64,000 nt of DNA from Methyloradius palustris (GTDB lineage Bacteria > Pseudomonadota > Gammaproteobacteria > Burkholderiales > Methylophilaceae): contig NZ_AP024110.1 of assembly GCF_019703875.1 (NCBI RefSeq), forward strand, positions 2,455,912-2,519,911, given 5' to 3'. Shown piece by piece: positions 2,569 to 20,825 of this stretch (positions are counted from its first letter, which is position 1; each line of letters begins with the position of its first letter). Below the pieces are notes generated by a model, which did not search any database, was not told where the DNA came from, and saw nothing but the letters and a program-made list of their open reading frames with translations. Both the position numbers and the translations under genes were made by a program.

Positions 2569-2841
2569 TTAGTGGCAAGCGCAGCCGGGCGCGCAGGCTG
2601 CTGCAGAAGCGGCTGGCTCTGATGCTTTACTCTCGCTTGAGCTTGAAGGCTTACTGCCGCCACCTTTAAAATCAGTTGCATACCAACCGCTGCCTGTTAA
2701 CTGAAAGCTAGGCGCAGATACTTGCTTGGTAAAAGTCTCTTTACCGCATTCAGGGCAAGTGGTCAGGTTAGGCTCGCTGACTTTACGCATAACTTCTTTT
2801 TTAATGCCGCAACTGCTGCATTGATAATCGTAAATAGGCAT
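2569..2841 (-). CDS. FmdB-family zinc-ribbon putative regulatory protein
   Basis: N-terminus MPIYDYQCSSCG...CPECG is the CxxC-CxxC FmdB ribbon; Ser/Ala-rich tail. Start moved to the internal Met, which has an AGGGA RBS. Confidence 0.75.
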   Translation of the reverse strand: MPIYDYQCSSCGIKKEVMRKVSEPNLTTCPECGKETFTKQVSAPSFQLTGSGWYATDFKGGGSKPSSSSESKASEPAASAAACAPGCACH

Positions 2842-2985
2842 GAAAATATCCCTTAAAAACAAAATTATACCCGAAGCCCTAGCGATTGCTAAAGCGACAA
2901 TACTAAACGTGCGGCCTTATTGATAATGGGGATGAGATTTGCAGGACGCAAGGGAGAAAAATAACGATATTTTTGCAGGTATCGA

Positions 2986-3903
2986 TTAAATCTTGATGTT
3001 GAGGATTTTGCTGCGTGCCAGCGCAGATGCAGCAGTACGTGTTTCTACGCCCAGCTTGGCGAAGACATGCTCCAGATGTTTATTCACGGTGCGCGGGCTA
3101 GTACCGAGAATATCGCCAATATCACGATTAGTTTTACCCTTGATAGCCCAGTAGAGCACTTCAGCCTCACGGCGGGTGAGCTTGAACGTGGCAATCAAGG
3201 CGTCAATCTGCGCGGCATCAGACTCCTCACGCAAAAGAATCACCCATTGTTCATCGTTCTGAATTTCCACTGGCGTGAAAATCAAACGGCCATCGCCTTT
3301 TAATACCGTTAATGGCATGGCCGTTGTTTTATCAACCACTTCAAATAGACGATTGACCCATGATTGCAGCTGTGTATTGGCTGAATATGCCTCTATCCAT
3401 TGCCTTGCCAGCGGCGTTTGCCACACGATCTTGCTGGTACTTGGGGTCACGGCAATCGCCGCTTGGCCAAAGGCATCCAGCGCGCCGCGCGTTTGGTGCA
3501 TCTGGCGCGATGTCTGCAAATGCGCTGCCATTCGGGCAAGCACCTCAGTTGGGCGAATCGGCTTGGTCACATAATCACAACCGCCTGCGGCAAAGCCTGC
3601 CACTACGTGCTCAGCTTCTGTGAGGCCTGTCATGAAAATCACGGGGATATGCTGCGTATCTGTTTCCGCCTTGAGTCTGCGGCATACTTCAAAGCCATCC
3701 ATCTCGGGCATGATGGCATCTAACAGGATAATATCTGGCTGGGTTTCTTTGGCCGTATGCAGCGCAGCTTTGCCACTGTTGGCAACCAAAACAGCAAAAC
3801 CAGATTCGGCCAGCGAATCATGCAACACGGCCAGATTGTCGAGCACGTCATCGACAATCAGCACCAAAGTTTCATGGCCACGATTGATGTTGATATTAGC
3901 CAT
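2986..3903 (-). CDS. response regulator, REC + unknown middle domain + LuxR-type HTH
   Basis: N-terminal receiver (LIVDDVLDNL...ILLDAIMPEMDG...KP); C-terminal LuxR/GerE HTH (REAEVLYWAIKGKTNRDIGDILGTSPRTVNKHLEHVFAKLGV). Start overlaps the stop of the upstream kinase by 8 nt. Confidence 0.85.
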   Translation of the reverse strand: MANININRGHETLVLIVDDVLDNLAVLHDSLAESGFAVLVANSGKAALHTAKETQPDIILLDAIMPEMDGFEVCRRLKAETDTQHIPVIFMTGLTEAEHVVAGFAAGGCDYVTKPIRPTEVLARMAAHLQTSRQMHQTRGALDAFGQAAIAVTPSTSKIVWQTPLARQWIEAYSANTQLQSWVNRLFEVVDKTTAMPLTVLKGDGRLIFTPVEIQNDEQWVILLREESDAAQIDALIATFKLTRREAEVLYWAIKGKTNRDIGDILGTSPRTVNKHLEHVFAKLGVETRTAASALARSKILNIKI

Positions 3904-6900
3904 TGCTGCTTATTTCCTGACTTTTGGTTTGCTGTGTAGGCATTTCCAGCAAAATCTGGCGCATTGCATCGAGTTGAAAGCCTTGCAATAACTTACGCAT
4001 CAAGGCGACGAACTCTTTATAGGATTGATCCAAGGTGGCAATTTCATCCAGTTTAGTTGCAACGCCGCGCACAAAACCAACCGCAAGCAGACCTTCTAAA
4101 GCCTGCACATGATCAATTGGTGGGTAGATAAAATCCGTTACTTTCTCTGGGATATGCTCGGATAAACTCATTAGGCTAGGCATGTAAGCACTCATTTCCA
4201 GCGAATCAAATTCGGTGAGCCATTTGATATTCAAGCGATTACCTATCCAGTCGAGCAGCTCTGAAACATGCACGGGTTTGATGATGATATCGTCAGTATG
4301 AATGCCCGCGGTGTTTTCCAGCCCTTTATCGAACGCATTGGCTGAAACGATGCCAATCAGCACATCAGACTGATGTACCTTGCGGATAATGTAGCTGGCC
4401 TCCCAGCCATCCATCACTGGCATCGCCAAATCCATCAAGATCAGGTCAGGCTTGAAAGTCTGGTAGAGATCAACGCACTCACGCCCATTCGCGGCCTGCG
4501 CCATTTCAAAGCCCAGCGGTTCGAGTATATGTACCAGCATCTCGCGATCGACTGCCTCGTTATCCACCACCAGTATTTTCTTGCGAGCACCTTGATAAGC
4601 AATACGGCTAGAGACGCTTTCCGAGGCCAGCTCTTTTGCCAGATGCGCCTGCGGTAAAAACAGGCGAATATAAAAGGTAGTACCCTCGCCCATTTTGCTT
4701 TTAACCGTGAGCTCGCCGCCCATCAACTGGGTCAGCATTTTACTAATAGTCAAACCAAGCCCAGTGCCACCTATGCTGCTGTTATTGGCTGCGCTACCAC
4801 GGGTAAATGGCTCAAATACTTCGTCGATCTCTTCTTGCAAAATGCCGGGGCCAGTATCTTCTATCTCGACCAACGCCAGCTCGCGGGCGTACTTCAAGCG
4901 AAAAATAACGCCACCCTGCTCAGTAAATTTAACGGCATTACCCAGAATATTGATCAATATCTGGCTCAAGCGTTTTTGGTCTGCACGTACGATGGCGGGT
5001 AATTCGCCTGTCACTTCATAGGCAAAACTGATGCCTTTATTGCGCGCTTGTAACTCGAACATATCAACGATCTGGCCGACCAACTCTGGGAATTTAAGTG
5101 GCTTAATATCAAAGGTCAGCTTGCCGCTCTCGATCCTGGCAATGTCCAGCGTCCCTTCAATGAGTGAAAGTAAATGCTCACCGCTACGCCGAATCACGCG
5201 GATGGCTGGCTGGCGATGCAGGGGAATCGAGGTGTCGTTATCGAGCAGTTGTGCATAACCCAATATGCTATTGAGCGGGGTGCGCAATTCGTGGCTAATG
5301 CCTGTGATATAACGACTTTTTGCCTGGTTTGCCTGCTCTGCCACCTGTCTTGCCAGTTGCAACTCCGTATCCGTCTGGCGATGCAGTTCAATCTCACGCA
5401 GCAACAAACCCGTTTGGCGATTGGATTCTTCTTGCGCCACTCGCCTGCTTTGGCTGGTCAAAACCAACCACCAGGTAATCATGGCACTGGCAAACACCAA
5501 AGCCGCGAACACTTTTAAATATCCCATGCGTAATTGCGGCAGCAAAGCGATGGCACTTTTCTCTAGGATCAAGGTTTCATGAAAATAAATCAGGCCAAGT
5601 ATGGTGCCGAGAAAAGTCAAAATAACGGCCATCAACAAGATGTAATGGCTCAAACCGCTATTGAGATAAGGGTACAAAGATTCTGGCAACAGCTTTGCCA
5701 GCATGGCATCCCACTGTGTGGATAATTTTGCGTGCGGCTTGCACAAATCATCGCAACGCGCATCCAGGCAACAGCAAAGTGAACAAATAGCACCTTGGTA
5801 AGCTGGGCACTGCGCCATGTCTTCAGTTTCGTACTCACGCTCGCAAACCACGCATTTCTCTACCCGTTTAGCCTTGGCGATTTCTGGCTGCTGAAGATTG
5901 GCAGGATTGACGCCCTTATTAAATGGTTCCACCACCACCTTGAATTTATAAGGTTGCCGTGCGATGTAGTATTTGCCTTTGGTGTACCAGGCAATCAACG
6001 GTGATGTGACAAATGCGGTACCTAAAGCAATGAATGCCGAGAAGGCTTTTAGCTCATGGCCAAATAATCCCGCGAATGCCGCAATAGAGATTGTAGAAGC
6101 CAGTAACATCGCGCCTACACCTACAGGGTTGATGTCATACAAATATGCGCGACGAAACTCTATGCCTTTTGGGCTCCAGCCCAGCGGCTTGTTGATCACT
6201 AAATCAGCCACGACGGCGGTAATCCACGAAATGGCGATATTGGAATATAGCCCAAGCACCTGTTCTAGCGCCTTGAATACATCCAACTCCATCAACATAA
6301 CAGCAATCAACGCATTGAATACTGCCCAGACCACGCGTCCAGGGTGGCTATGCGTCAGGCGCGCAAAAAAGTTGGACCACGCCAGTGAGCCTGCATAGGC
6401 ATTGGTCATATTGATCTTGATCTGCGAGACGATGACAAATAGCGTAGTCACTGCAAGGGCAATTTGTGGAGCACTAAATACGTGGCTGAAACCTACAAAA
6501 TACATGTGCGTTGGGTTGACTGCATTCTCAAACGACATGCTGCCTTCAATCGCCAAATACGCCAAAAGCGCGCCGCCTAGCATTTTCACCAAACCAAGAA
6601 TAATCCAGCCAGGGCCCGCAACTAGCACGCCGAGATGCCAGGCGATTTTATTTTCTTCGGTCTTCTCAGGCATAAATCGCAGAAAATCCACCTGCTCGCC
6701 AATTTGCGTGATTAACGCCACACCCACTGCAGTGGCGGCTCCGAACATGAGCAGATTGAATTCACCACTTGTCGATTTTCCAGTGAAGCTGATTAGACGC
6801 GAAACGATGTGAGGGTCTTGATGAATAATGGCAATAAAAGGCAGCACCATCAAAATCAGCCAGATTGGCTGCGTAATCATCTGAATACGACTAATTAGCG

Positions 6901-7450
6901 TCACCCCATGCGTGACCAGCGGAATTACAATGAGCGCGCTCACCATATAGCCGATATACAGCGGCATGTGGAAATACAACTCCAGCGCATAAGCCATGAT
7001 GGCGGCTTCTAGCGCAAAGAGAATGAAAGTGAACGAGGCGTAAACGAAAGAGGAAATTGTGGAGCCGATATAGCCAAACCCTGCGCCACGGGTCAGTAAA
7101 TCCATATCAACGCCATACTTTGCAGCGTAATAACTGATTGGCAAACCCGTCATAAAAATGATCAGGCTTACTGCTAATATCGCCCAAAATGCGTTTATAA
7201 ATCCGTAATTAACCGCTATAGTGCCGCCAATTGCTTCTAAAACCAAAAATGAGATCGCGCCAAAAGCGGTATTCGCCACACGCAATACAGACCACTTACG
7301 AAATGAATGCGGCGTAAAGCGCAGGGCGTAATCTTCCAGCGTCTCGTTACCCACCCATGTATTGTAATCACGACGCACTTTGACTATGCGCTGTGTTGGC
7401 TCGTGGGCTTGATTATTGGCCTGATTGGCTTCGGCTATGGCTGTGGTCAA
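3896..7450 (-). CDS. hybrid sensor histidine kinase with N-terminal 12-TM transporter-like (NCS1/permease-like) domain
   Basis: 1184 aa. About 500 aa of polytopic membrane domain resembling purine-cytosine/NCS1-type permeases; then a Cys-rich segment; two more TM helices; coiled coil; HisKA (SHELRTPLNSILGYAQLL); HATPase_c (GTGLGLTISK); receiver domain (ILVVDNE...LMDLAMPVMDG...KP); ~110-aa C-terminal extension. Confidence 0.85.
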   Translation of the reverse strand: MTTAIAEANQANNQAHEPTQRIVKVRRDYNTWVGNETLEDYALRFTPHSFRKWSVLRVANTAFGAISFLVLEAIGGTIAVNYGFINAFWAILAVSLIIFMTGLPISYYAAKYGVDMDLLTRGAGFGYIGSTISSFVYASFTFILFALEAAIMAYALELYFHMPLYIGYMVSALIVIPLVTHGVTLISRIQMITQPIWLILMVLPFIAIIHQDPHIVSRLISFTGKSTSGEFNLLMFGAATAVGVALITQIGEQVDFLRFMPEKTEENKIAWHLGVLVAGPGWIILGLVKMLGGALLAYLAIEGSMSFENAVNPTHMYFVGFSHVFSAPQIALAVTTLFVIVSQIKINMTNAYAGSLAWSNFFARLTHSHPGRVVWAVFNALIAVMLMELDVFKALEQVLGLYSNIAISWITAVVADLVINKPLGWSPKGIEFRRAYLYDINPVGVGAMLLASTISIAAFAGLFGHELKAFSAFIALGTAFVTSPLIAWYTKGKYYIARQPYKFKVVVEPFNKGVNPANLQQPEIAKAKRVEKCVVCEREYETEDMAQCPAYQGAICSLCCCLDARCDDLCKPHAKLSTQWDAMLAKLLPESLYPYLNSGLSHYILLMAVILTFLGTILGLIYFHETLILEKSAIALLPQLRMGYLKVFAALVFASAMITWWLVLTSQSRRVAQEESNRQTGLLLREIELHRQTDTELQLARQVAEQANQAKSRYITGISHELRTPLNSILGYAQLLDNDTSIPLHRQPAIRVIRRSGEHLLSLIEGTLDIARIESGKLTFDIKPLKFPELVGQIVDMFELQARNKGISFAYEVTGELPAIVRADQKRLSQILINILGNAVKFTEQGGVIFRLKYARELALVEIEDTGPGILQEEIDEVFEPFTRGSAANNSSIGGTGLGLTISKMLTQLMGGELTVKSKMGEGTTFYIRLFLPQAHLAKELASESVSSRIAYQGARKKILVVDNEAVDREMLVHILEPLGFEMAQAANGRECVDLYQTFKPDLILMDLAMPVMDGWEASYIIRKVHQSDVLIGIVSANAFDKGLENTAGIHTDDIIIKPVHVSELLDWIGNRLNIKWLTEFDSLEMSAYMPSLMSLSEHIPEKVTDFIYPPIDHVQALEGLLAVGFVRGVATKLDEIATLDQSYKEFVALMRKLLQGFQLDAMRQILLEMPTQQTKSQEISSNG

Positions 7451-7766
7451 CTACATTTCCCTCTTTTATTTTTTAATAACCCAAGGTGATTGGTCACAAA
7501 AACACCCAACTTTATCTTACATAACTTCTGGCATTGCTGGAGTACGCCATTTGACGTATTAGCCGAGGCTGGCTAAAAGAGTGTCTAATTATGCTGAATA
7601 TTAAGCACGGCTTGTGCCTAGTTATAGGTTGATTCTGACTTGAGTTGCAATAATGCTTAAAAGAATCTACGATTAAAAGTGGGGATTTTGCAGCCTCCCC
7701 CGTTTCAAGACGCCTAGCGTCCAAGGACTGCTCCAACTGAGGCTTAATAACCTTGAAGGAGAGTTC

Positions 7767-9125
7767 GTGGACACTAAAAACAACCTCAGCAGCACCCAAA
7801 TTACAGCCCCTCAACCTGTCACTCTAAAGCAAGCCTTTGTCTATTGGCTTAAGCTTGGTTTCATCAGTTTTGGTGGGCCTGCTGGTCAGATCGCCATCAT
7901 GCATCATGACTTGGTCGAGAAGAAACGCTGGATTTCCGAGAAGCGTTTCTTGCATGCGCTCAACTTTTGCATGGTATTACCTGGCCCTGAAGCACAACAG
8001 CTTGCTACTTACATAGGTTGGCTGATGCATCGTACTTGGGGTGGCATCATTGCTGGCGGCCTATTCGTTCTGCCTTCATTCTTCATATTGATAGGGTTGG
8101 CGTGGGTCTATATGGCTTATGGTGCTTTACCTGCAGTTGCTGGGGCGCTTTATGGAATCAAACCAGCCGTTGTCGCTATAGTGTTCTTCGCGGCCTATCG
8201 TATCGGTTCCAGAGCGCTTAAAAACCATGTGCTTTGGTCACTCTCCGCATTGGCATTCTTTGCCATTGCGGTATTAAAGCTCCCGTTCCCAATCATCGTA
8301 TTGGCCGCAGGATTGATTGGTTATATGGGTGGTCGCACTTCCCCGAAGTATTTTCAGGTTGGTGGTGGACATGGTGCGAGCCAAAAAGATTATGGCCCCG
8401 CACTAATTGACGATGAAACGCCTACTCCACAGCATGCTAGTTTCAGCTGGAACAAGGTGCTAAGAATCACTGCGATTGGTCTCGGCATCTGGTTACTTGC
8501 CATGGCAATCCTATATATCCGCTATGGTTGGGATGGCGCCTTCACACAAATGGGCTGGTTCTTTACCAAAACCGCATTGCTGACCTTTGGCGGGGCTTAC
8601 GCGGTATTACCCTATGTCTATCAAGGAGCAGTAGAGCATTATCACTGGCTCAACCCGACACAGATGATAGACGGCTTAGCATTGGGAGAGACTACGCCAG
8701 GCCCTTTGATTATGGTGGTGACCTTCGTTGGCTTTGTCGGTGGTTGGGTAACACAAGTGTTTGGGCCAGATGCTGTATTCATGTCAGCTTTGATTGCTGC
8801 GGCAATTGTGACCTTTTTTACCTTTCTGCCCAGCTTCGTCTTTATTTTATTGGGTGGCCCGTTTATTGAGACTACCCATGGCAACCTGAAATTCACCGCA
8901 CCACTCAGCGCAATCACAGCAGCTGTGGTCGGCGTTATCTTTAATCTAGCGCTATTTTTTGCTTACCATGTGTTCTGGGTAAAGGGCTTTACTGGCTCGG
9001 TGGACTGGGCATCGGTGACAATCACGCTCATGGCATTTGCTGCCATATACCGCTTCAAGGTCAATATCATCCCCGTAATCCTGAGTTGCGGCGTGCTGGG
9101 GATGGCTTGGAAACTACTCGCTTGA
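7767..9125 (+). CDS. chrA: chromate transporter ChrA (long, duplicated form)
   Basis: 452 aa; FVYWLKLGFISFGGPAGQIAIMHHDLVEKKRWISEKRFLHALNFCMVLPGPEAQQLATYIGW motif in half 1, repeated in half 2 (FGGAYAVLPYV...GETTPGPL). GTG start with AAGGAG RBS. Confidence 0.85.
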   Translation: MDTKNNLSSTQITAPQPVTLKQAFVYWLKLGFISFGGPAGQIAIMHHDLVEKKRWISEKRFLHALNFCMVLPGPEAQQLATYIGWLMHRTWGGIIAGGLFVLPSFFILIGLAWVYMAYGALPAVAGALYGIKPAVVAIVFFAAYRIGSRALKNHVLWSLSALAFFAIAVLKLPFPIIVLAAGLIGYMGGRTSPKYFQVGGGHGASQKDYGPALIDDETPTPQHASFSWNKVLRITAIGLGIWLLAMAILYIRYGWDGAFTQMGWFFTKTALLTFGGAYAVLPYVYQGAVEHYHWLNPTQMIDGLALGETTPGPLIMVVTFVGFVGGWVTQVFGPDAVFMSALIAAAIVTFFTFLPSFVFILLGGPFIETTHGNLKFTAPLSAITAAVVGVIFNLALFFAYHVFWVKGFTGSVDWASVTITLMAFAAIYRFKVNIIPVILSCGVLGMAWKLLA

Positions 9126-9138
9126 AACAATCAATTTG

Positions 9139-10182
9139 CTAATGATTGTGCTGATGATGCGCATCTGGATAGTGGGGATGGCGATGCTTTATTGGTAGAT
9201 GCTGATGCGCATGGCTATGTTTAAATCCTAGTCCAATTTGATGCTCATGGCCGTGTTGATGATGTTCATCGTGAGTATGTTCATGCTCATGTTCCATTGG
9301 CATGTGGCTATGAGTGTGTTCATGATGCTCTGTTAAATGTAACCAGATACCGAGAGCCATAAACAACCCAGCAATCAATAGCGGCAATGTTAGTGGCTCA
9401 CCCAAAGCAATCGCCAATAACGCGCCAAAGAATGGAGCTACTGAAAAGTATGCGCCTGTTCGTGCCGTTCCCAGATGGCGCAAACCAACCACAAACAAAG
9501 TCAGGCTGACTCCGTAAGCTAAAAACCCTAGCGCCAATGCCCCAGCAATATTAGGTATTGCAGGCAATGTTGCTCCCAGTGAAAACGCAAGAAACAGATT
9601 AACTGTACCAGCTACCAAGCCTTTGACTGAGGCAATCCATGTCGCATCAGATAATGAGACTTTGCGCGTCAGGTTGTTATCAACACCCCAGGCAAAACAA
9701 GCGCCCAATATCGCCAAAGTTGGTAATGAACTGGCAAAGCTGATTTTATCTGGCCAACTCAGGATAGTTGCCCCGAACAAAATTGCTAACATGCCGATCG
9801 CAATCCGACGGTCAAAGTTCTCTTTAAAAGCGAACCATGCCAGTAGTGCAGTAAAGACGCCTTCTGTATTCAGCAGCAGAGAGGCGCAAGAAGCTGGCAT
9901 GCTAAGTAGCCCCCACATCAATAATACGGGAGCCACAATACCACCAGCTAGGATAGCGCCTGAGAAACAGAACAACTCTACGGAAGTGAGCTTTGCAGGT
10001 AATGCCTTGGTGATAAGACGGTAAAGCGTTAAGCCTATACCAGAGCCAAGATACAACAACCCAGCCAATAACCATGGGCTGACACCAGCCAAGAGCAGTT
10101 TGGCAAGCGGCGTTCCCATCCCAAAAAGTAATGCTGCGGTAAGTGCTGCGAATACACCTATCTGATTAATTTTGAGTTTCAT
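9139..10182 (-). CDS. DMT/EamA-family permease with ~65-aa polyhistidine C-terminal tail
   Basis: 10-TM EamA-type body; tail HLTEHHEHTHSHMPMEHEHEHTHDEHHQHGHEHQ...HSHAHQH...HRHPHYPDAHHQHNH is about 45% His; lies directly downstream of hupE/ureJ and the urease operon. Confidence 0.75.
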   Translation of the reverse strand: MKLKINQIGVFAALTAALLFGMGTPLAKLLLAGVSPWLLAGLLYLGSGIGLTLYRLITKALPAKLTSVELFCFSGAILAGGIVAPVLLMWGLLSMPASCASLLLNTEGVFTALLAWFAFKENFDRRIAIGMLAILFGATILSWPDKISFASSLPTLAILGACFAWGVDNNLTRKVSLSDATWIASVKGLVAGTVNLFLAFSLGATLPAIPNIAGALALGFLAYGVSLTLFVVGLRHLGTARTGAYFSVAPFFGALLAIALGEPLTLPLLIAGLFMALGIWLHLTEHHEHTHSHMPMEHEHEHTHDEHHQHGHEHQIGLGFKHSHAHQHLPIKHRHPHYPDAHHQHNH

Positions 10183-10191: not shown

Positions 10192-10770
10192 CTAAACAGC
10201 TAGTAAATAAGCCCCTGTCAGCAGCATCAAGCCGCCCATCACTAAATTGACTTGCTTGGCGATAGTCACGCGGCCAGACGATAACAACAGGCCAAGAGCG
10301 TGCAGCAAAGCAGTGGCGAGTAACATGCCCAGCATCACACTCCAGCCGCTAGAGAATGAAAGCTCAAGCCCATGCGCAAAACCGTGAAGCATGGCAAATA
10401 TAGCGGTCAAAGCTATCTGTATTGGGCGCTTAAGTGGTAATTGAATCAGTAGCAGCAAACCCATTGCCAGCACACTAGCGCTGACACCAATCTCAACACT
10501 GTCAGCATTTAGGTTTGCAGGCATCAAACCAGACATCGCGATTGCAGCGCCAAACGCCATCACCAAAACAAAAGTCACGGGTAACTGCCAACGCGCAGAG
10601 CCGCCAAGTTTGGCTGCCCACATGCCGATTGAGACCATGACCAGCAAATGATCAATCCCAGTAAGTGGATGTAGAAAACCAGCCAAAGCACCCTGCTCGG
10701 CATGGCCTGGATGCGCCATTGCTAGTGTTGAAAATAAACTAAAACTAATGGCGAGCAACATTTTTTTCAT
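10192..10770 (-). CDS. hupE: HupE/UreJ-family nickel transporter
   Basis: 192 aa; signal peptide then HPGHAE...FLHPLTGIDHLL motif characteristic of HupE/UreJ; sits at the end of the urease cluster. Confidence 0.85.
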   Translation of the reverse strand: MKKMLLAISFSLFSTLAMAHPGHAEQGALAGFLHPLTGIDHLLVMVSIGMWAAKLGGSARWQLPVTFVLVMAFGAAIAMSGLMPANLNADSVEIGVSASVLAMGLLLLIQLPLKRPIQIALTAIFAMLHGFAHGLELSFSSGWSVMLGMLLATALLHALGLLLSSGRVTIAKQVNLVMGGLMLLTGAYLLAV

Positions 10771-10824
10771 AGTGATTCTCCTTTTTCCAGTTCTGCAGCG
10801 TAAGTGATGCTTGGAGTTATAACC

Positions 10825-11472
10825 CTAAAGCATCAAGCCTTGTTTCTCGATAAAGCTAACAATCTCTTCCAAGCCCTGCCCAGTTTTTAAATTGGTAAAG
10901 ATAAACGGCCGCTCGCCACGCATACGCTTGGCATCTCTATCCATCACTTCGAGCGATGCGCCAACCATAGGGGCGAGATCGATTTTGTTGATGATCAACA
11001 AGTCAGACTTGGTAATACCAGGGCCACCTTTGCGTGGGATCTTCTCGCCAGCGGCGACATCAATTACATAAATGGTCAGATCAGACAACTCTGGGCTAAA
11101 GGTCGCCGCAAGGTTATCGCCGCCGCTTTCAACAAAAATAATATCCAGTGTTTTAAAGCGCTTACTAAGCTGAGCGACAGCTTCAAGATTCATAGAAGCA
11201 TCTTCGCGTATGGCGGTATGCGGGCAACCACCCGTTTCTACACCGATTATGCGATCGGGCGATAGAGCTTCATTACGAGTGAGAAACTCGGCATCTTCTT
11301 TGGTATAGATGTCGTTGGTCACAACAGCAATGTTATAAACATCGCGTAGCCGTTTGCATAACGATAGTGTCAGCGCCGTTTTACCCGAACCCACTGGGCC
11401 GCCTATGCCAACGCGTAAAGGCTCTTTATAGCTGGCAGTTGCTGCGATTGCTTCTTCAATAGTAAGTGTCAT
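10825..11472 (-). CDS. ureG: urease accessory GTPase UreG
   Basis: 215 aa; P-loop [11 protein letters not shown]; conserved [13 protein letters not shown] and ESGGDNL motifs. Confidence 0.95.
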
Positions 11473-12155
11473 GATCTAAATAGCCTACTGTACTGGGTCT
11501 CATGTTGACAGCCTGCAATCGTCAGGCTGGGTGCAAAATTGCTGATTTCATCGTCATCTAGTGCTATGGACTGGCTTACCAAGTCGGGTAATTGCTGGCC
11601 TAAACTCAATAATATTTTTTGCCCTGCGACTTGCCCAAGCGGTACCGTTTTCATGGCAGCGCTGGCCTGATTTTCTGCCCATGACCACGCATAGGCCTGT
11701 AGCATATCTGGTAACGGAATTGCCCAAACAGACGCAACACCCGCATACACGGCAGGAAAGCTAGGCTCGTGTAATGCATTAATCTTCGCCATAAAATCTG
11801 CAGGTAAATCATTCAAGTCGTTCAGCAAGCGGCAGAGTGAATAGCCCATTTGCTTGGTTTCAGCGAGTGATTCAGCCGTATCGCGCCCAGCCTGAAAAAA
11901 CGCATCCCATGTATTGACTGCCTGCATATCGCCTGCTTGCCAGGCTTGGTAAAGCCGATGCAATACTGGCAACTCAAAGCTGCCCTGATATATATGTAAT
12001 GCGTCGCTAATCCATTGCTTAGCGGTTGCCAGATCATGCACGTCGCCAGACTCAATCGCCCATTCCAAGCCTTGCGAATAACTATAAGCGCCCACTGGCA
12101 GCATAGTGCTGGCAAGTTGCAATAATCGGCTCAGCGCCAAACTGGAGCTAGCCAT
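11469..12155 (-). CDS. ureF: urease accessory protein UreF
   Basis: UreF-like helical protein; ORF-track start (12257) would overlap ureE by ~110 nt, so start placed at internal Met ([16 protein letters not shown]...). Start is uncertain. Confidence 0.8.
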
Positions 12156-12636
12156 GCCGCCCCAATCTCGCCGAGGGCAATCGTGCAATATCATCATCAT
12201 GATGGCGATGGCCGCCGCCGTAGGCGCCAGCTTCTGGCTCGAACGGTGCCTGTTCATCCGTTAATGTCATGCCCAAACCAACTAGCATGTCTTTTAGTAC
12301 ATGGTCTTGTTCCAGTAACAGCCAGCCATCGCCCACTTGCAATGGCACATGCCGATTGCCCAAATGATAAGCAGCGCCCATCAAGGCTTGCTGGTTTGAT
12401 GCTGTTACGCGAGTAACAGGCTCATTCGCTGCGACTATCTGCACCACGCGCCCGTCTTCCGCTTTCAACAAATCACCGCCACGCAGTATCGTGCCGCGAT
12501 CCAACATCAATGCGGCTTCCAGACCAGACTGCAGTGTGACCCGCAGACGACTTCTCTGGCGCAAATCAAACGGTAAAAGCAGTTGATCATCGATCTGGTG
12601 AAGTCCGGTCAGGCGTTGTGTAATATTTAGCATCAA
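12148..12636 (-). CDS. ureE: urease accessory metallochaperone UreE
   Basis: 162 aa; UreE N- and C-domain pattern; only a short His cluster ([10 protein letters not shown]) at the C-terminus. Confidence 0.85.
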
Positions 12637-14348
12637 AATAAAAAGTAACGTTGTGCCATTGGCAGCACGGATGCTGGCTCGCAGGTCAGCAACATGCCAT
12701 CGGCACGAACAATATAGGTTTCAGGGTCGACATCAATCACGGGCATCCAATTGTTATGAATCATGTCTTTTTTCTTTACGGTACGGGTACCGCTCACGGC
12801 CACAAGTGGCTTTTGCAGATTCAGCGCTTGGACTTCGGGATTTTCTAAACCAGCCTTTGAAACAAAAGTGACTGAAGTTTTTAGGCCACCGCCATAGGCA
12901 CCAAACATATGGCGATAATGCACAGGTTGTGGCGTAGGAATCGATGCATTGGGGTCGCCCATTGCGGCGGCGGCAATCATGCCGCCTTTGAGTATAGTCG
13001 ATGGTTTTACCCCGAAAAATGCAGGTCGCCAAATCACCAAATCAGCCAGTTTGCCGACTTCTATTGAACCAACGGTATGGGCAATACCATGTGTCAATGC
13101 TGGGTTGATGGTGTACTTTGCGATATAACGTTTCACGCGAAAGTTATCGTTACGCTCGGTATCTTCAGCCAGCGCGCCGCGCTGCATTTTCATTTTGTGC
13201 GCGGTTTGCCAGGTGCGAATGATCACTTCACCCACACGCCCCATGGCTTGTGAATCGGATGACATCATCGAGAACGCGCCGAGGTCATGCAGAATATCTT
13301 CTGCCGCAATCGTCTCGCGGCGAATGCGACTCTCGGCAAAGGCAATATCTTCGGCAATCGCGGGGTCAAGATGGTGGCAAACCATCAGCATATCCAGATG
13401 CTCGTCGATGGTATTGACAGTGAATGGCCGCGTTGGATTGGTAGAGGATGGCAATACGTTGACATAGCCAGCGGCTTTAATGATGTCTGGTGCGTGACCG
13501 CCTCCAGCGCCCTCTGTGTGGAATGTATGGATGGTGCGATCTTTAAACGCAGCGATTGTGGTTTCAACAAAACCAGATTCATTCAGCGTATCGCTATGAA
13601 TCGCTACCTGAATATCCATCTCTTCAGCAACGCTTAGGCAGTTATCAATAGCAGCGGGCGTTGTGCCCCAATCTTCATGCAGCTTAAGCCCGACGACACC
13701 TGCTTTGACTTGTTCTATCAAAGGCTCAGGCAGGCTGACATTGCCTTTACCCAGAAAACCAAGATTCATCGGGAAGGCATCTGCCGCTTGCAACATGCGA
13801 TGTATATGCCAAGGCCCTGGCGTACAAGTTGTAGCAAACGTACCCGTGGCAGGCCCAGTACCGCCGCCTATCATGGTGGTGACGCCAGACATCAGCGCCT
13901 CTTCAATCTGTTGCGGGCAGATGAAGTGAATGTGCGTGTCAATGCCGCCGGCGGTAACAATCATGCCTTCACCCGCGATAATTTCGGTACCTGCGCCAAT
14001 CGGTATCGTGACGCCTGGCTGTATATCTGGATTGCCAGCTTTGCCGATAGCCGAGATACGCCCGCCCTTGATACCAATGTCCGCTTTCACAATGCCCCAA
14101 TGATCGACAATCAAAGCATTGGTGATGACTGTATCAGCCACATCTTTGGCATTGAGTTGGCCTTGCCCCATACCATCACGGATAACCTTGCCACCACCAA
14201 ATTTCACTTCTTCGCCATAACAGCCAGCGAGCAAGGTGTAATCTTTTTCTACTTCTATCCAGAGTTCAGTGTCGGCCAGACGCACACAATCTCCCGTGGT
14301 CGGGCCAAACATTTCGGCATAGGCTCGCTTGTCTATCTTCACACTCAT
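12633..14348 (-). CDS. ureC: urease alpha subunit
   Basis: 571 aa; canonical UreC ([20 protein letters not shown]..., GGIDTHIHF, carbamylated-Lys region, MVCHHLD). Confidence 0.97.
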
Positions 14349-14653
14349 TTAAGCGCCCCCATCACCTTGCCTGCAAACCCATACACTTTGCGATCACCTG
14401 CTAATGCAACTAATTGCACCGTGCGGGTTTGGCCTGGTTCAAAGCGCACAGCCGTACCTGCAGCAATATCTAGCCGAAATCCATAAGCTGCTTGCCTGTT
14501 GAACGACAGCGCCTCGTTGGTCTCAAAAAAGTGATAGTGCGAGCCAATTTGGATTGGGCGATCACCTGTATTTGAGACATCAATGGTGACTGTCGGCCGA
14601 TCTACATTCAGCGTGATTTCACCCGACTCAATTTTCATTTCACCTGGAATCAT
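14345..14653 (-). CDS. ureB: urease beta subunit
   Basis: 102 aa; MIPGEM...EITLN...[13 protein letters not shown]. Confidence 0.95.
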
Positions 14654-14663
14654 ATGCGCCTCA

Positions 14664-14818
14664 AAAATGGATTTCCATGAGATAAGTTAAGGATAAAAAT
14701 GGATGAAGTACGAGGCGCCCGGAGCGCAGCAGCCGAGACAGTACAATAAGTACGGCAAGGTTGTGAGCACCGCGCAACGAAGTAATTCGCCATTTTGATT
14801 ATTAAATTACTCATGGAA
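14664..14818. repeat. intercistronic structured repeat element, copy A (core 14701-14791; arms TTCCATGAG / CTCATGGAA)
   Basis: About 85% identical over 91 nt to 18847-18937; flanked by a perfect 9-bp inverted repeat whose right arm overlaps the ureA stop codon and whose left arm abuts the ureB RBS. Confidence 0.7.
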
Positions 14819-15113
14819 TGGGTTGGTGGACAGTAACAAGTTTCGTTCCATCTGGGAAAGTCGCTTCAATCTGGATATCGGGAATCATCTCGGGAATACC
14901 TTCCATCACGTCATCACGTGTGAGTAAAGTAGCGCCATATCCCATAAGATATGCCACAGTCTGGCCATCGCGAGCGCCTTCCATGATGGCGGCAGAAATA
15001 TAGGCAATCGCCTCGGGATAATTCAGCTTAAGGCCGCGTGCCTTGCGCCGCTCGGCCAGTAGACCAGCGGTAAAAATCAGCAATTTATCTTTTTCGCGTG
15101 GGGTAAGTTCCAT
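14811..15113 (-). CDS. ureA: urease gamma subunit
   Basis: 100 aa; [35 protein letters not shown]... canonical UreA. Confidence 0.95.
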
Positions 15114-15135
15114 AATTCTATTCTCTCAAATTCAA

Positions 15136-16020
15136 TCAAGTGCTCCAGATGCGTGGTCTGGAACTTTGTCTTGTGGCATACCAAGGCCGTAGTATGTGCC
15201 ACAACGCTTCAAAATACTGTCGCGCGGATTGCGCTGAATGGCCAATATAACGTGCAGAAAAAATCTGCGGTAATGCTGTCAGGCCAATTTTTGAGGACTG
15301 ACCTGCCGAAACTTCTCTACAAGCTGCAATGATCTCTGCTGGCACAGCACCTGCCGCAACGACGAAACTGGCACTCACTACCTGCCCGCGCAAACCAGCC
15401 ATTGAAGCAAACGCTCGACTTTGTGGTGATAGATTTGTGCGCTCGTTCCAGATCAATTGATTGTTGCGCCTGATGGCCAAACGTTGATTGAGCTTACCTT
15501 GCAGCCATTCTTCATTGCTGGCTTGACGGCCAAAACAGAGAATATCCCACCCAGCAAACACAGCCTGTCCACCGAGATTAATCTCTGCTGATAAGGCAGT
15601 GTCCGAACCCTCAAACAATATATTCTCTTGCGGTAGCCACTCCAGTATCGCACTATCTTGTAAATCAAAATTCAGTTGCTGGCTGGCCTGCCGACCGTTG
15701 GACTTGTACCACTTTCCTGCACCTGGCGTGGTGAGCAGCACATGTGAGTGATTACTTTGCTGCACATTGAGCGTTAAGGCATCACCGCCAGCAACACCGC
15801 CCGGCGGGTGCACGATAATCGCATGGCTGACGACCTCACCTTCTGGATACAACACTTTCTGGATGACCAAAGGGCCTTCATGCTGCTTACGGGCTAATAC
15901 CGTGCGTCCATTTTTCTCTACGAAATCCAGGCTTAGTTTTGCGCGCCAGTTGAGGCTAGCAACTGCTGCTTGTCTTGCCGACAATTCTGACTGCTGTAAA
16001 TAGGCATCATCCATCAACAC
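15136..16020 (-). CDS. ureD: urease accessory protein UreD/UreH
   Basis: 294 aa; UreD-family pattern; position directly upstream of ureA. Confidence 0.85.
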   Translation of the reverse strand: MLMDDAYLQQSELSARQAAVASLNWRAKLSLDFVEKNGRTVLARKQHEGPLVIQKVLYPEGEVVSHAIIVHPPGGVAGGDALTLNVQQSNHSHVLLTTPGAGKWYKSNGRQASQQLNFDLQDSAILEWLPQENILFEGSDTALSAEINLGGQAVFAGWDILCFGRQASNEEWLQGKLNQRLAIRRNNQLIWNERTNLSPQSRAFASMAGLRGQVVSASFVVAAGAVPAEIIAACREVSAGQSSKIGLTALPQIFSARYIGHSAQSARQYFEALWHILRPWYATRQSSRPRIWST

Positions 16021-16065
16021 ATATTGCCACGAATCTGGGTCAGTTCGTAATATTGGAAGCAGAAA

Positions 16066-16764
16066 CTATAGCGCAACAAAGTTACGGATATTGTCTTTTT
16101 CCATATCTTCGCCCAGACCGTTTTTCACCACTTGGCCGCGTGACATCACCAGATAATGATCAGCCAGCGCCTCGGCGAAATCGTAATATTGTTCTACCAG
16201 CAGAATCGCCATATCACCACGCTCAGAAAGCATTTTGATCACGCGTTCGATGTCTTTGATAATAGAAGGCTGAATGCCTTCAGTCGGCTCATCGAGTATC
16301 AATAATTTAGGCCGAGAAATCAGCGCGCGGGCAATCGCCAATTGTTGTTGTTGCCCGCCAGAAAGATCGCCGCCACGTCTATACAGCATCTGCTTCAGCA
16401 CGGGGAACATGTCATAAATGTCTTCAGGTATCTGCGATGCCGCTTTGCCTTTCACTACAGCCAAACCCATGTGCAAATTTTCTTCTACCGTAAGGCGGCT
16501 GAATATCTCACGGCCTTGTGGCACATAGGCCATGCCTAAAGCGGCACGTTCGTATGGTTTGAGGTTGGTAATGTCTTTACCATCCAGAAAAATGTGGCCC
16601 GTTTTAACAGGCAACACGCCCATCAGGCATTTGAGTAAGGTGGTTTTTCCTACACCGTTACGGCCTAGCAATACGGTACAGGCACTCATAGGCGCAGCAA
16701 GTGAAACATCACGAAGAATCTGGCTGCCGCCGTAGAATTGGTTGATGGCTTTTACTTCTAACAT
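16066..16764 (-). CDS. urtE: urea ABC transporter ATP-binding protein UrtE
   Basis: 232 aa LivF-like ATPase (GRNGVGKTT, LSGGQQQ, LILDEP) at the end of the urt operon. Confidence 0.9.
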   Translation of the reverse strand: MLEVKAINQFYGGSQILRDVSLAAPMSACTVLLGRNGVGKTTLLKCLMGVLPVKTGHIFLDGKDITNLKPYERAALGMAYVPQGREIFSRLTVEENLHMGLAVVKGKAASQIPEDIYDMFPVLKQMLYRRGGDLSGGQQQQLAIARALISRPKLLILDEPTEGIQPSIIKDIERVIKMLSERGDMAILLVEQYYDFAEALADHYLVMSRGQVVKNGLGEDMEKDNIRNFVAL

Positions 16765-16769
16765 ATTGA

Positions 16770-17591
16770 TTAGCGCCCCAAATAAACTTCTATGACTTGT
16801 TCGTTAGACTGCACTTGCTCCATCGAACCCTCAGCAAGCACGCTGCCTTGATGCAGCACGGTCACTTTGCGTGCGATGCTATTTACGAAATCCATGTCGT
16901 GTTCAACCACCATAATTGAATGCTTGCCTGCCAGGCTATTTAACAACTCGGCAGTACGTTCGGTTTCATGATCGGTCATACCGGCCACAGGCTCATCCAG
17001 CAGCAAAAGTTTAGGTTCTTGCGCCAGCAACATGCCGATTTCAAGCCACTGTTTTTGCCCGTGCGATAACAAGCCTGAGCGCATTTTGTGGGAATCTTGC
17101 AGGTTGATGGTAGTGAGAATTTCGGCAATACGGTCCAGCTGCTCGCCAGAAAGCTTGCCGAATAATGAGTTCCAGATACCTTTATCAGTCTTCATCGCCA
17201 ATTCGAGATTTTCAAATACCGTATGGTTTTCAAACACCGTTGGCTTCTGAAATTTACGTCCGATGCCAGCCTGCGCAATTTGCGGCTCGGTCATCTTGGA
17301 GCAATCCATGGTTTGCCCAAAAAACACCGTGCCTGTATCTGGCCGCGTTTTGCCAGTGATGACGTCCATCATGGTGGTCTTACCGGCGCCATTAGGGCCG
17401 ATAATGCAGCGTAGTTCGCCTACATCAATTGATAGCGATAATTTGTTAAGTGCCCTGAATCCATCAAAACTAACGGTGATGTCTTCCAGATAAAGCACCA
17501 CACCATGCGTGGTATCTAGCACACCAGGCTGGTAGAGACTGCCACTCCCACGAACGTCAGTGGCAGGTTGCGAAATACTATTTTCAACCAT
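16770..17591 (-). CDS. urtD: urea ABC transporter ATP-binding protein UrtD
   Basis: 273 aa LivG-like ATPase with N-terminal extension typical of UrtD (GPNGAGKTT, LSHGQKQ, LLLDEP). Confidence 0.9.
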   Translation of the reverse strand: MVENSISQPATDVRGSGSLYQPGVLDTTHGVVLYLEDITVSFDGFRALNKLSLSIDVGELRCIIGPNGAGKTTMMDVITGKTRPDTGTVFFGQTMDCSKMTEPQIAQAGIGRKFQKPTVFENHTVFENLELAMKTDKGIWNSLFGKLSGEQLDRIAEILTTINLQDSHKMRSGLLSHGQKQWLEIGMLLAQEPKLLLLDEPVAGMTDHETERTAELLNSLAGKHSIMVVEHDMDFVNSIARKVTVLHQGSVLAEGSMEQVQSNEQVIEVYLGR

Positions 17592-18760
17592 TATGCTTGC
17601 CCCGCTTCTCCGTCAACTGCGTTGCTTGGTAACTCATTTTCTGTCTTCTTGGCTTTTAGTTTTGACTTCACTTTTCCAAATAAACCTAATACCCCTTGCG
17701 GTAAGTAGAGCGTTGCCAAGACAAACAACAAGCCTAAAAAGTACAGCCAATATTCAGGGAATGCCTGGGTAAAGTAGCTCTTGGCACCATTCACAATACC
17801 CGCACCCAACAATGGCCCAATCAGCGTGCCACGACCGCCGACCGCTGCCCAGATAGCAATTTCAATGGAGTTGGCTGGTGACATCTCGCTGGGGTTGATG
17901 ATGCCAACCTGCGGCACATATAAAGCCCCTGCAATACCGCAAATGACTGCAGAAAATGTCCAGATCGCCAGCTTGTAATGCAGCGGGTTGTAGCCAGAGA
18001 ACATCACTCGGGATTCTGCATCGCGTATAGCTGTGAGCACGCGGCCAAATTTACTGGTCACGATTGCACGCGAAATAATCAGGAAAGCAACCAGCAATAT
18101 GCCTGTAATCACAAACAAGGCCATGCGCATTTGCCCAGTAGTAATTGGGATATCCAGCAGGCGCTTGAAATCGGTAAAGCCATTATTACCGCCAAAGCCT
18201 GTTTCATTGCGGAAGAACAGCAGCATGAAAGCGTATGTCATGGCTTGCGTGATGATAGAAAAATAAACACCCTTGATGCGTGACCTAAAGGCAAAGTAAC
18301 CGAAGATAAAAGCCAACACGCCCGGCACCAACACCACGAGCAGCAAGGCAAACCAGAAGTGATCCGTCATCGCCCAATACCAAGGGTAAGTCTTCCAATC
18401 CAAGAACACCATAAAGTCTGGCAGATTGCTATGGTAGCTACCATCGGTGCCAATCTGGCGCATCAAGTACATACCGAATGCATAGCCACCCAGCGCAAAA
18501 AACAGGCCGTGACCTAAACTTAATATGCCTGTGTAGCCCCAAACCAAGTCCATCGCCAAGGCGACAAAGGCGTAACAAAGTATCTTGCCGCAGAGCGCTA
18601 CGGTGTAATCGGAGATATAAAAAACACTGGTTTCTGGCACCAGCAAATTAAAAACGGGGAACACCACACAGACAACAGCCAGTGCTATCGCCAGCGCCAA
18701 CCAGGCTTTACTGCTGTAAAGCCGATGTACCAGCGTTGGTTGCGGAAATTTCTCATGCAT
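17591..18760 (-). CDS. urtC: urea ABC transporter permease UrtC
   Basis: 389 aa LivM-like polytopic permease; start codon overlaps urtD stop. Confidence 0.9.
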   Translation of the reverse strand: MHEKFPQPTLVHRLYSSKAWLALAIALAVVCVVFPVFNLLVPETSVFYISDYTVALCGKILCYAFVALAMDLVWGYTGILSLGHGLFFALGGYAFGMYLMRQIGTDGSYHSNLPDFMVFLDWKTYPWYWAMTDHFWFALLLVVLVPGVLAFIFGYFAFRSRIKGVYFSIITQAMTYAFMLLFFRNETGFGGNNGFTDFKRLLDIPITTGQMRMALFVITGILLVAFLIISRAIVTSKFGRVLTAIRDAESRVMFSGYNPLHYKLAIWTFSAVICGIAGALYVPQVGIINPSEMSPANSIEIAIWAAVGGRGTLIGPLLGAGIVNGAKSYFTQAFPEYWLYFLGLLFVLATLYLPQGVLGLFGKVKSKLKAKKTENELPSNAVDGEAGQA

Positions 18761-18824
18761 GGTTTTGCTTCCTTATTACTAATGCGTTATTGGCAGCTAA
18801 TAATCTGATTTGATACTTAAAGAA

Positions 18825-18959
18825 ACGCGGAATAAGTCGTTGAGCGGGATGAAGTGCAAGGCGCACGGAACGCAGGAACCGAGACAGTACATAGAGTACG
18901 GCGAGGTTGCGAGTACCGCGCAACGCAGCAATTCGCCCGCGCAGACACTTATTCCGTGT
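18825..18959. repeat. intercistronic structured repeat element, copy B (core 18847-18937; arms ACGCGGAATAAGT / ACTTATTCCGTGT)
   Basis: Second copy of the 91-nt core, nested in a 13-bp inverted repeat (12/13 paired; the mismatch is a G.U wobble only on the plus-strand RNA); lies between urtB stop and urtC start. Confidence 0.7.
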
Positions 18960-18963
18960 TTCC

Positions 18964-20613: not shown

Positions 20614-20642
20614 AAGAACTCTCGGTCATGTTCACACAGAAA

Positions 20643-20668
20643 CCGCTACGGGGGTTAGCCCGTAGCGG
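20643..20668 (-). terminator. intercistronic stem-loop (partial terminator/attenuator) between urtA and urtB
   Basis: Perfect 10-bp inverted repeat CCGCTACGGG/CCCGTAGCGG with 6-nt loop, followed on the minus strand by UUUCUGUGUG; 30 nt upstream of urtB start. Confidence 0.5.
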
Positions 20669-20825
20669 CGTTTCGTACATTTACTACTGATAAAACAGAA
20701 TGTGCTTAAGCATTTGTTTTATTACTTTGCTACTTGTTTGCTGCTGTTATTACCAAGCAATTTATCTGCTTGCTTGTGTTGCATGTTTTACTGCTTTTAT
20801 ACTTCGCCTACCTTAACTTCAAGCC

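Follow-up and report, generated by a model that had tools for sequence, protein, structure and literature searches.

We describe a signalling gene pair on a 64,000-nt stretch of the Methyloradius palustris genome (NZ_AP024110.1, 2,455,912-2,519,911), hereafter called the window, in whose coordinates all positions are given. The minus strand of the window carries the genes for a hybrid histidine kinase, of which the N-terminal part is a predicted permease-like membrane domain, and for a LuxR-type response regulator. On balance, kinase and regulator appear to form a two-component system dedicated to the neighbouring genes for scavenging of urea and short-chain amides, and the pair most likely switches on the adjacent urea-uptake and urease genes. 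More tentatively, with doubts that slightly outweigh our confidence, we propose that the 14-helix module of the kinase represents a previously undescribed, widespread family of bacterial sensors. Here it would act as the first dedicated membrane sensor of urea and short-chain amides. Together with its REC-X-LuxR partner and an operator, it would fill a long-standing gap, that of a regulator which senses the inducer of the urt/ure and fmd regulons in methylotrophs and other Betaproteobacteria. We first present what the data show most directly, namely the predicted fold, the domain layout, the synteny and an operator with fixed promoter geometry.

Fold and membrane architecture of the sensor module

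Hydropathy of the kinase indicates about 12 transmembrane helices (TM) in residues 60-490 and two further ones at residues 599-668, with an eight-cysteine stretch between them. According to the positive-inside rule, both the N-terminus and the segment following TM12 are cytoplasmic. An AlphaFold model of residues 20-575 has a predicted template modelling score (pTM) of 0.81, its membrane core having a predicted local distance difference test score (pLDDT) of about 90, and a Foldseek search with this sensor model returned CodB (E = 5e-9) and Mhp1 (E = 2e-8). When a profile built from 12 diverse members of the family was compared with the entire PDB, CodB was the single match (7QOA, E = 4.4e-4, TM1-6), and hhalign against E. 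coli CodB gave a probability of 81% over 403 columns. As profile match, hhalign and Foldseek on the AlphaFold model agree, the predicted fold of the sensor is LeuT-type and nearest to that of the NCS1 permeases.

Direct sequence searches are silent on this kinship. There were zero matches for residues 1-530 in a phmmer search of PDB sequences, and no Pfam model, PF02133 included, matched residues 1-706 at E ≤ 10. Similarly, PF02133 was found in 0 of 40 diverse family members at E ≤ 0.001, and none of these matches any Pfam transporter model. The sensor sequence has diverged past the reach of the NCS1 Pfam model, and its kinship is visible by profile and fold comparison only. The Pfam models of the known sensor modules MASE1-9, 5TMR-LYT, 7TMR-DISM and MHYT matched neither the window protein nor the 40 family members.

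An earlier annotation made from the sequence alone (the first-pass annotation) had described a 1184-residue kinase in which a 12-TM permease of about 500 residues, rather than a periplasmic sensor domain, precedes a kinase core, a receiver and an unassigned C-terminal domain of ~110 residues. The open reading frame (ORF) and the Pfam matches bear out this order of domains, no Pfam sensor domain turned up in the N-terminal region, and the permease fold is recovered by profile comparison and by structure prediction. The PF02133 match that had been expected for the N-terminal region did not materialize, and the module turned out to be larger than a permease domain, since an eight-cysteine domain and two TM belong to it as well.

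In the alignment of orthologues, C533, C536, C548, C556, C559, C560, C566 and C570 of this Cys-rich domain are invariant. The domain has no Pfam match at E ≤ 10 and is modelled as four short strands with a pLDDT of 54-65; it may bind a metal, probably zinc. Across the family, the motif CxxC-x(8-14)-C-x(5-9)-CxxCC follows TM12 in 62 of 71 sampled representatives, and two hydrophobic helices come after the motif in 56 of 59 diverse representatives. Because both elements recur across the family, the conserved input module comprises about 670 residues, made up of 12 TM, the Cys-rich domain and a two-TM hairpin. An insertion of about 21 residues, VVEPFNKGVNPANLQQPEIAK (residues ~513-530, window ~5861-5914), is found after TM12 and before the Cys-rich domain in the window protein and in P0001, its twin at 96% identity, and is absent from the 21 other orthologues.

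Among the orthologues from Methylophilaceae and Oxalobacteraceae the sensor domain is 82% identical, whereas identity amounts to 67% in the ATPase domain and 72% in the receiver. By these figures the sensor is more conserved than either, which is unusual for sensor domains.

Breadth of the sensor family

A search of 1.84 billion cluster representatives (50%-identity clusters) with residues 1-530 yielded 1706 clusters related to the 12-TM domain at E ≤ 1e-3, 447 of which remain at E ≤ 1e-30. Outputs among the 40 diverse members include HisKA/HATPase/REC (21), GGDEF (5), EAL (4), Hpt (4) and SpoIIE-type (PP2C) phosphatase domains (2), and PAS and GAF domains are present too. In some distant members a true Hpt follows the receiver, as in P0140 (locus L089), which reads GAF-HisKA-HATPase-REC-Hpt. 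No ure or urt genes were found near the distant members (GGDEF/EAL, GAF-kinase-Hpt and short forms), so that genomic context offers no clue to the ligand in their case.

The family has no Pfam or NCBIfam model, and we found no experimental or comparative study of it in the full-text literature, in which subscription journals are thinly covered. This agrees with the first-pass annotation, which had taken the architecture to be uncharacterised. Automated names already hint at a permease ('purine-cytosine permease-like protein' at JGI; 'cytosine permease, partial' for an NCBI fragment). A Dechloromonas genome paper lists, without comment, a 1131-residue kinase and a 308-residue receiver protein beside urtA, apparently the orthologous pair; two transcriptome papers on Azoarcus are silent on any pair of this kind.

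Signalling domains of the kinase and the regulator

In an alignment of 23 kinase orthologues (1130-1180 residues), H720, N834/N838, D865-G869, G895-G899, D963, D1007, S1036 and K1058 are invariant. The protein thus has the H-box histidine, the N, G1 and G2 boxes and the receiver aspartate of a hybrid histidine kinase. Its last ~110 residues start with a low-confidence, structure-less linker of about 40 residues, after which four helices are modelled with a mean pLDDT of 93-98. No Pfam model, Hpt included, matched this part at E ≤ 10, and NCBIfam gave no credible match to it, to residues 1-706 of the kinase or to the middle 119 residues of the regulator. Neither did a profile search of the PDB find a relative of the C-terminal domain, and Foldseek against the PDB gave a best E of 1.4, the HPt protein YojN following at E = 1.8, which is not significant. 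A GYVRG stretch can be laid over the HxxKG motif (with H replaced by G), and an HPt or 'pseudo-HPt' identity was considered on these grounds and dropped as unsupported. Because PDB profile search and Foldseek fail and no histidine is conserved in residues 1075-1184, the domain is not called an HPt. A hidden Markov model of the domain collects about 20 clusters at 50% identity, of the hybrid-kinase type of ~1100-1200 residues. The urea-linked group has a histidine-less four-helix domain where some distant members carry a true Hpt.

The regulator combines a receiver (residues 14-124, Response_reg, E = 2e-26) with a C-terminal GerE/LuxR helix-turn-helix (HTH) domain (residues 242-293, E = 2.6e-16). 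With its receiver aspartate and its C-terminal HTH it belongs to the NarL/FixJ class, and D18, D19, D62, T92 and K114 are invariant in 27 orthologues. The ~110-residue middle domain (residues 128-238), in which W161 and W182 are conserved, has no Pfam match at E ≤ 10. A profile search of the PDB gave only a marginal match to CutA (E = 5e-4), which we regard as spurious, and a PAS-like pattern seen by eye was not backed by any PAS match in the profile search. GrtK/GrtR, the ammonia-sensing system of Burkholderia glumae, was considered as a relative and is unrelated, its 427-residue kinase being PilS/RegB-like.

Linkage to urea and amide genes

The genomic surroundings of the kinase were compared across 80 loci, taking one genome per species; the kinases encoded there are orthologues whose sensor domains show 61-78% identity. 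They stem from Methylophilaceae, Oxalobacteraceae, Rhodocyclaceae, Comamonadaceae, other Burkholderiales and a few Gammaproteobacteria. The first-pass annotation had proposed a survey of co-occurrence with urea and amide loci, and such a link is evident in the 51 long loci, which extend ~10 kb on either side: the regulator follows the kinase in 50 of them, and 47 have ure and/or urt genes within 10 kb. In Methylobacillus, Methylotenera and Methylophilus, the urt, ure, kinase and regulator genes are co-directional. In Oxalobacteraceae the regulator is followed by a convergent urt operon, and in Comamonadaceae the ure genes diverge from the kinase gene, with the urt genes downstream. That the linkage has outlasted these rearrangements speaks for a functional tie. 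In a second set of loci, exemplified by Methylophaga (L012) and Bordetella sp. (L058), the pair is flanked by genes for a formamidase and an ABC transporter with an amide/urea-type binding protein, and L012 has, in addition, an FmdC-like porin and an FmdB-family protein.

Candidate operator and promoter geometry

A 16-bp palindrome, TACGYM-N4-KRCGTA, was first noticed upstream of urtA across loci and is a candidate operator. Exact matches number 33 in the window and 1.5 Mb of loci taken together, as compared with 1.45 in shuffled sequence. Thirty of them precede a gene start by 34-140 nt, namely that of urtA in 16 cases, of an FmdC-like porin gene in 5 and of the kinase gene in 9, and the remaining three lie at the ends of their loci. 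A TAnnnT-like hexamer (for example TAATCT, TAGCAT, CAGAAT or TAACCT) occurs exactly 23 nt downstream of 29 of the 33 matches. Should this hexamer serve as a -10 element, the centre of the palindrome would fall near -43.5, where a class II activator is expected to bind. The TAC..GTA arrangement in a 7-2-7 layout is that of NarL/FixJ-class sites.

The window contains exactly two exact matches in 64 kb, against 0.03 expected, and both have the 23-nt spacing (Table 1). The element found before the porin gene recurs ahead of urtA or a porin gene in 21 other loci. The one before the kinase gene is centred ~100 nt ahead of the TTG start codon. When one mismatch is allowed, the window still has two matches against 1.03 expected, which is not significant alone; the argument rests on the exact-match count, the positions and the conservation across loci. 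An operator before the kinase gene is a feature of only a subset of loci, with 11 of the 51 long loci having one at ≤ 1 mismatch (~0.9 expected). Neither sigma-54 elements (-24/-12) nor NtrC-like dyads were found in the window promoters.

The half-sites vary along with the recognition helix of the regulator (residues 269-281), as compared in loci L022-L083 and the window: helices with (A/M)TVKK occur together with TACGCC..GGCGTA in 14 of 14 loci, and those with RTVNK or RTVHK together with A/T at half-site positions 5-6. In the Hydrogenophaga-type loci L047, L049, L060 and L071, the palindrome upstream of urtA is flanked by extra half-sites, e.g. TACGCCACCCGGCGTACATACGCC, a hint at a second, overlapping site.

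Candidate pocket and proposed mechanism

Residue roles, among them that of the substrate-sandwich aromatics, were taken from the CodB structure paper (PMC9379551) and mapped onto the sensor through a HMMER alignment of 18-24% identity. G64 aligns with the glycine at the TM1 break (CodB G29), and the TM6-end motif is likewise retained, D255 and R258 aligning with CodB D213 and R216. Both aromatics that sandwich the base are replaced in this low-identity alignment: CodB W108 (TM3) corresponds to L144, which is L or F in the orthologues, and F204 (TM6) to L246. In their turn, E148 (TM3), Q249, E252 and Q253 (TM6 break) and K345, N347 and N350 (TM8) are invariant or nearly so across the family. 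For TM8, hhalign pairs M348 and T349 with the Na2-site residues T278 and T279 of CodB, and K345 with N275, with a three-residue gap within the helix that leaves the register uncertain. From this pattern we infer that the pocket may have been rebuilt for a small polar ligand instead of a planar base, and sequence and context together point to urea or short-chain amides as the probable ligand. The first-pass annotation had suggested sensing of a small nitrogen compound (urea, amide or nucleobase). Its urea/amide part is strengthened well beyond adjacency in a single genome by the synteny in 47 of 51 loci and by a conserved candidate operator before urt and porin genes; its nucleobase part is not supported, the sandwich aromatics being replaced in the alignment.

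In the mechanism that we propose, ligand, sign of regulation, binding of the operator and phosphotransfer would fit together as follows. A small polar solute, most likely urea and possibly also formamide or other short amides, would enter the central pocket of the permease-like domain, and its binding would shift the bundle/hash conformation, a change that would be relayed to the DHp helices by way of the Cys-rich domain and the TM13-14 hairpin, upon which H720 would autophosphorylate. The phosphate would reach D62 of the regulator, either directly or via an unlinked HPt protein, with D1007 of the kinase receiver serving as relay or sink. A phosphorylated regulator dimer would then occupy the 7-2-7 palindrome near -43.5 and activate the sigma-70-type promoters of porin-urtABCDE-ure and, in this genome, of its own operon.

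Weighing of the proposed system and its signal

Several points weigh against a dedicated urea/amide system of this kind. In the window, the opposite-strand chrA gene stands between the kinase operon and the ure cluster. Evidence that links operator and regulator is correlative, and the covariation is confounded with phylogeny and G+C content. The kinase has a receiver and no HPt, so that the phosphotransfer route proposed here is tentative. As to the ligand, urea and amides are deduced from sequence and context, and the residue mapping depends on alignments of low identity in which the TM8 register is uncertain. No residues were found that separate the kinases of urea-type loci from those of formamidase-type loci, the putative pocket residues (E148, Q249, E252, Q253, K345, N347 and N350) being identical in the two. 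The same residues are also kept in distant members with GGDEF or EAL outputs that lie away from urea genes. Their role may accordingly lie in the conformational cycle or in ion coupling rather than in defining a urea site; alternatively, the ligand class may be shared, or the family as a whole may sense another common solute or something more general, for instance ammonium or an ion.

Another reading is that the domain is itself a working permease, so that the kinase would be a CbrA-like transceptor that imports urea or amide and whose signal follows transport flux. We regard this as unlikely, though well worth keeping in mind. CbrA transports histidine (PMC7096432, PMC13022988). In the kinase, the complete 12-TM fold is kept, with G64 and the residues of the TM6 break region invariant or nearly so, and the higher identity of the sensor than of ATPase domain and receiver fits selection on a full conformational cycle. 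On the other hand, the domain obtains no score at all against the NCS1 Pfam model, the substrate-sandwich aromatics of CodB are lost by alignment, and the genome already has a porin and a high-affinity urea ABC system.

Slightly less probable still is a sensor that governs the same targets through the same system and reads something other than urea or amides, be it ammonium or nitrogen status (with the genes shut down under nitrogen sufficiency), a cation, pH or the energisation of the membrane. The invariant charged core residues E148, E252 and K345 suit an ion better than neutral urea, and the retention of residues in members with other outputs and neighbours, like their identity between urea- and formamidase-type loci, is in line with such a signal. 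Moreover, the fmd genes of M. methylotrophus are repressed by ammonia (PMC10781810), and the window promoters have no NtrC or sigma-54 site to explain repression. Against this stands that the genes accompanying the orthologous group serve to take up and hydrolyse just two classes of H2N-C=O substrates, the usual pattern of substrate-inducible systems, and that general nitrogen control in proteobacteria normally runs via NtrBC. Furthermore, ureido or amide groups are found in known NCS1 substrates, for example hydantoin, allantoin, cytosine and uracil. A sensor of urea or short-chain amides remains the reading that we favour.

Gene layout in the window

Kinase, regulator and an FmdB-family gene form three head-to-tail ORFs on the minus strand. 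The stop of the kinase gene and the start of the regulator gene overlap by 8 nt (3896-3903), as noted in the first-pass annotation, which had also recognized the REC-X-LuxR architecture of the regulator and the FmdC-porin/urt/ure cluster nearby. This cluster consists of ureJ, ureGFE, ureCBA, ureD, urtEDCBA and the porin-like gene and runs from 10192 to 23283, on the minus strand throughout. UrtB-E, UreC, UreE and UreG are NCBIfam equivalog matches. The binding protein at the urtA position (Peripla_BP_5/6), UreD, UreF and UreJ have Pfam matches, and ureA and ureB are present as ORFs. The porin gene, without a Pfam match, matches the ExtI porin model weakly and is 59-73% identical to genes preceding urtA or formamidase in L001, L012 and L015-L017.

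The kinase unit had been placed upstream of this cluster, which holds in window coordinates; given transcription from the minus strand, the kinase gene is 3' of the cluster, with the EamA and chrA genes in between. As the kinase gene directly follows ureJ in the Methylobacillus, Methylotenera and Methylophilus loci (L003, L005, L013, L014 and L019), chrA and the EamA gene look like an insertion into a conserved arrangement.

Table 1. Positions of the genes, protein domains and candidate control sites in the window
Feature	Position	Strand	Remarks and evidence
FmdB-family zinc ribbon gene	ORF 2569-2862, true start ATG 2841 (2569-2841)	-	90 aa; TIGR02605
Response regulator gene, REC - ~110 aa - LuxR/GerE HTH	2986-3903	-	305 aa; Pfam
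Hybrid histidine kinase gene	3896-7450	-	1184 aa, TTG start, GAGGGA Shine-Dalgarno; ORF list, translation, Pfam
Kinase C-terminal four-helix domain, aa 1112-1168	3947-4117	-	AlphaFold model
Kinase receiver, aa 959-1067 (D1007)	4250-4576	-	Pfam E 6.6e-18
Kinase core: HisKA/DHp aa 710-776 (H720), HATPase aa 824-932	4655-5323	-	Pfam E 2.6e-16, 2.4e-26
TM13-TM14 hairpin, aa 599-668, links sensor to S-helix and DHp	5447-5656	-	Hydropathy
Cytoplasmic Cys-rich domain, aa 531-575	5726-5860	-	Orthologue alignment
Sensor core, predicted 12-TM LeuT-fold domain like CodB/NCS1 permeases, aa 20-495	5966-7393	-	
Candidate operator palindrome TACGTCAAATGGCGTA, upstream of kinase gene	7543-7558	-	-10-like TAAGAT 7514-7519
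Chromate transporter gene chrA	7767-9125	+	Between kinase and EamA gene
EamA-family transporter gene	9139-10182	-	Between chrA and ureJ
urtABCDE, ureDABC, ureEFG, ureJ, putative targets	10192-22094	-	NCBIfam, Pfam, ORF list
FmdC-like outer-membrane porin, first gene of putative target cluster	22162-23283	-	
Candidate operator palindrome TACGCAATATGACGTA, upstream of porin-urt-ure cluster	23400-23415	-	-10-like TAATCT 23371-23376

The FmdB zinc ribbon had been counted as a member of the kinase-regulator unit. It does adjoin the regulator gene, 144 nt after it on the same strand with no terminator-like site between, but it is very improbable that the protein joins kinase and regulator as a further component, in the co-regulator role that was once suggested for Methylophilus fmdB. 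The best sigma-70-like site in the 8.5 kb scanned is found directly before the FmdB gene (TTAGCA-17-TATAAT, 2892-2864, 10/12 matches), and gaps of 31 and 40 nt lead on to DUF502 and aspS; this tight packing behind a strong sigma-70-like site suggests that FmdB-DUF502-aspS (1881-2892) may be a transcription unit of its own. An FmdB-family gene follows the regulator in 0 of 83 related loci, close Methylophilaceae relatives included; three loci have one, 4.3-10 kb from the regulator start. The literature label of FmdB as a 'putative positive regulator' (PMC10781810) and the FmdB-family genes within the formamidase clusters of L012 and L015 speak for such a co-regulator. The window protein is a clear FmdB ribbon (TIGR02605, 72.3 bits, cut-off 31.3; PF09723, 57.3 bits, cut-off 34.4), but it scores 35 bits on the RPWMISH model, which marks the formamidase-linked form (cut-off 120), where the L012 copy scores 107 bits. 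FmdB is adjacent to, but in our judgement outside, the kinase-regulator system.

The notion that the pair has nothing to do with the urea genes, its adjacency being accidental and some other regulator binding the palindrome, can draw on the intervening EamA and chrA genes and on four of the 51 long loci, which have no ure or urt gene within 10 kb, but is highly improbable given that the linkage holds in 47 of 51 loci from several families despite co-directional, divergent or downstream layouts, that the palindrome also precedes the kinase gene (9 of the 33 exact matches, and more often than expected at ≤ 1 mismatch) and that the half-site covaries with the recognition helix.

Some further features of the region deserve mention. 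UrtB (18964-20613) has 549 residues, of which TIGR03409 (291 positions) spans residues 255-546 alone; its N-terminal ~250 residues match no model, and there is a faint HEAT_2 match there in a Pseudoduganella orthologue. Long gaps separate urtC from urtB (203 nt, 18761-18963) and urtB from urtA (212 nt, 20614-20825), and neither the operator palindrome nor a sigma-54 motif was found in these two gaps of the urt operon. Beyond the porin promoter, 24257-28303 contains the gene of a 752-residue fusion protein (OsmC-like, YcaO and YcaO_C), which is followed by cytochrome b561 and molybdopterin oxidoreductase genes, an MsrQ/MsrP-like pair.

Relation to known systems

CodB and Mhp1 (NCS1, TC 2.A.39) share with the kinase sensor profile homology, the TM1 break glycine and the motif at the end of TM6, and on a reading of the sequence the TM8 pattern 'T-N-x-Y-A-G-S-L' is similar too. 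Unlike these permeases, the kinase sensor has no PF02133 match, has, by alignment, L/F144 and L246 in place of the sandwich Trp (TM3) and Phe/Trp (TM6), has gained the invariant E148, E252 and K345, and continues into an eight-cysteine domain and two TM fused to signalling outputs. It groups with NCS1 by fold and remote homology, and stands apart by family model and sandwich residues.

The SLC5-type kinases CbrA, CrbS and MxtR likewise have a LeuT-fold N-terminal input, control genes for nutrient use and possess a small helical or other domain between membrane part and kinase (PMC13022988, PMC7096432). Contrary to these, the window kinase is NCS1-like rather than of the sodium/solute symporter (SSS) type, without a PF00474 match, and instead of STAC or PAS it has a Cys-rich domain and a re-entrant two-TM hairpin; the combination of SSS domain and STAC that marks CbrA/CrbS-type transceptors is absent from it. 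It is, moreover, a hybrid kinase with a receiver and a C-terminal four-helix domain, and its partner is LuxR-type with sigma-70-type promoters, whereas that of CbrA, CrbS and MxtR is an NtrC-type sigma-54 activator. Ks-Amt5 offers another parallel, since there, too, the fold of a transporter of nitrogen compounds is reused as a kinase sensor (PMC5764959). From all four of these kinases the window kinase differs in transporter family, coupling domains, hybrid architecture, partner class and target genes.

The regulator resembles NarL/FixJ regulators in its REC and GerE/LuxR HTH domains and in the 16-bp TAC..GTA repeat, of which the centre near -43.5 fits class II activation. It differs from them in its extra ~110-residue middle domain and in a half-site, predicted from sequence, of TACG(C/T)(C/A)N.

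The fmdCABDEF cluster of Methylophilus methylotrophus encodes a porin, formamidase, FmdB and an amide/urea ABC transporter; its regulator was never identified, and only a 'putative' one has been named (PMC10781810). M. palustris is a related methylotroph, the best named matches of the window being to Methylophilaceae and Methylotenera, and has an FmdC-like porin before a urea/amide ABC system, and in Methylophaga L012 the kinase-regulator pair stands beside a porin-fmdA-fmdB-fmdD cluster. In contrast to the fmd cluster, the window has no formamidase beside the porin, and its FmdB-family gene lies elsewhere, with DUF502-aspS.

Implications

Transporter domains that serve as kinase sensors ('transceptors') have been called rare in bacteria, the few studied examples that we found being CbrA, CrbS/MxtR (SLC5) and Ks-Amt5. 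The kinase described here would add a different transporter family, with a Cys-rich domain and a TM hairpin as coupling parts of its own. In methylotrophs and many Betaproteobacteria, the genes for porin, ABC transporter, urease and formamidase respond to urea and formamide as inducers, and the sole candidate regulator named so far is the 'putative' FmdB. For this response, our analysis puts forward candidates for both sensor and regulator, together with a defined candidate operator of 16 bp and two promoters. The urea turnover of bacteria of this kind is of importance in soils, fresh water and wastewater.

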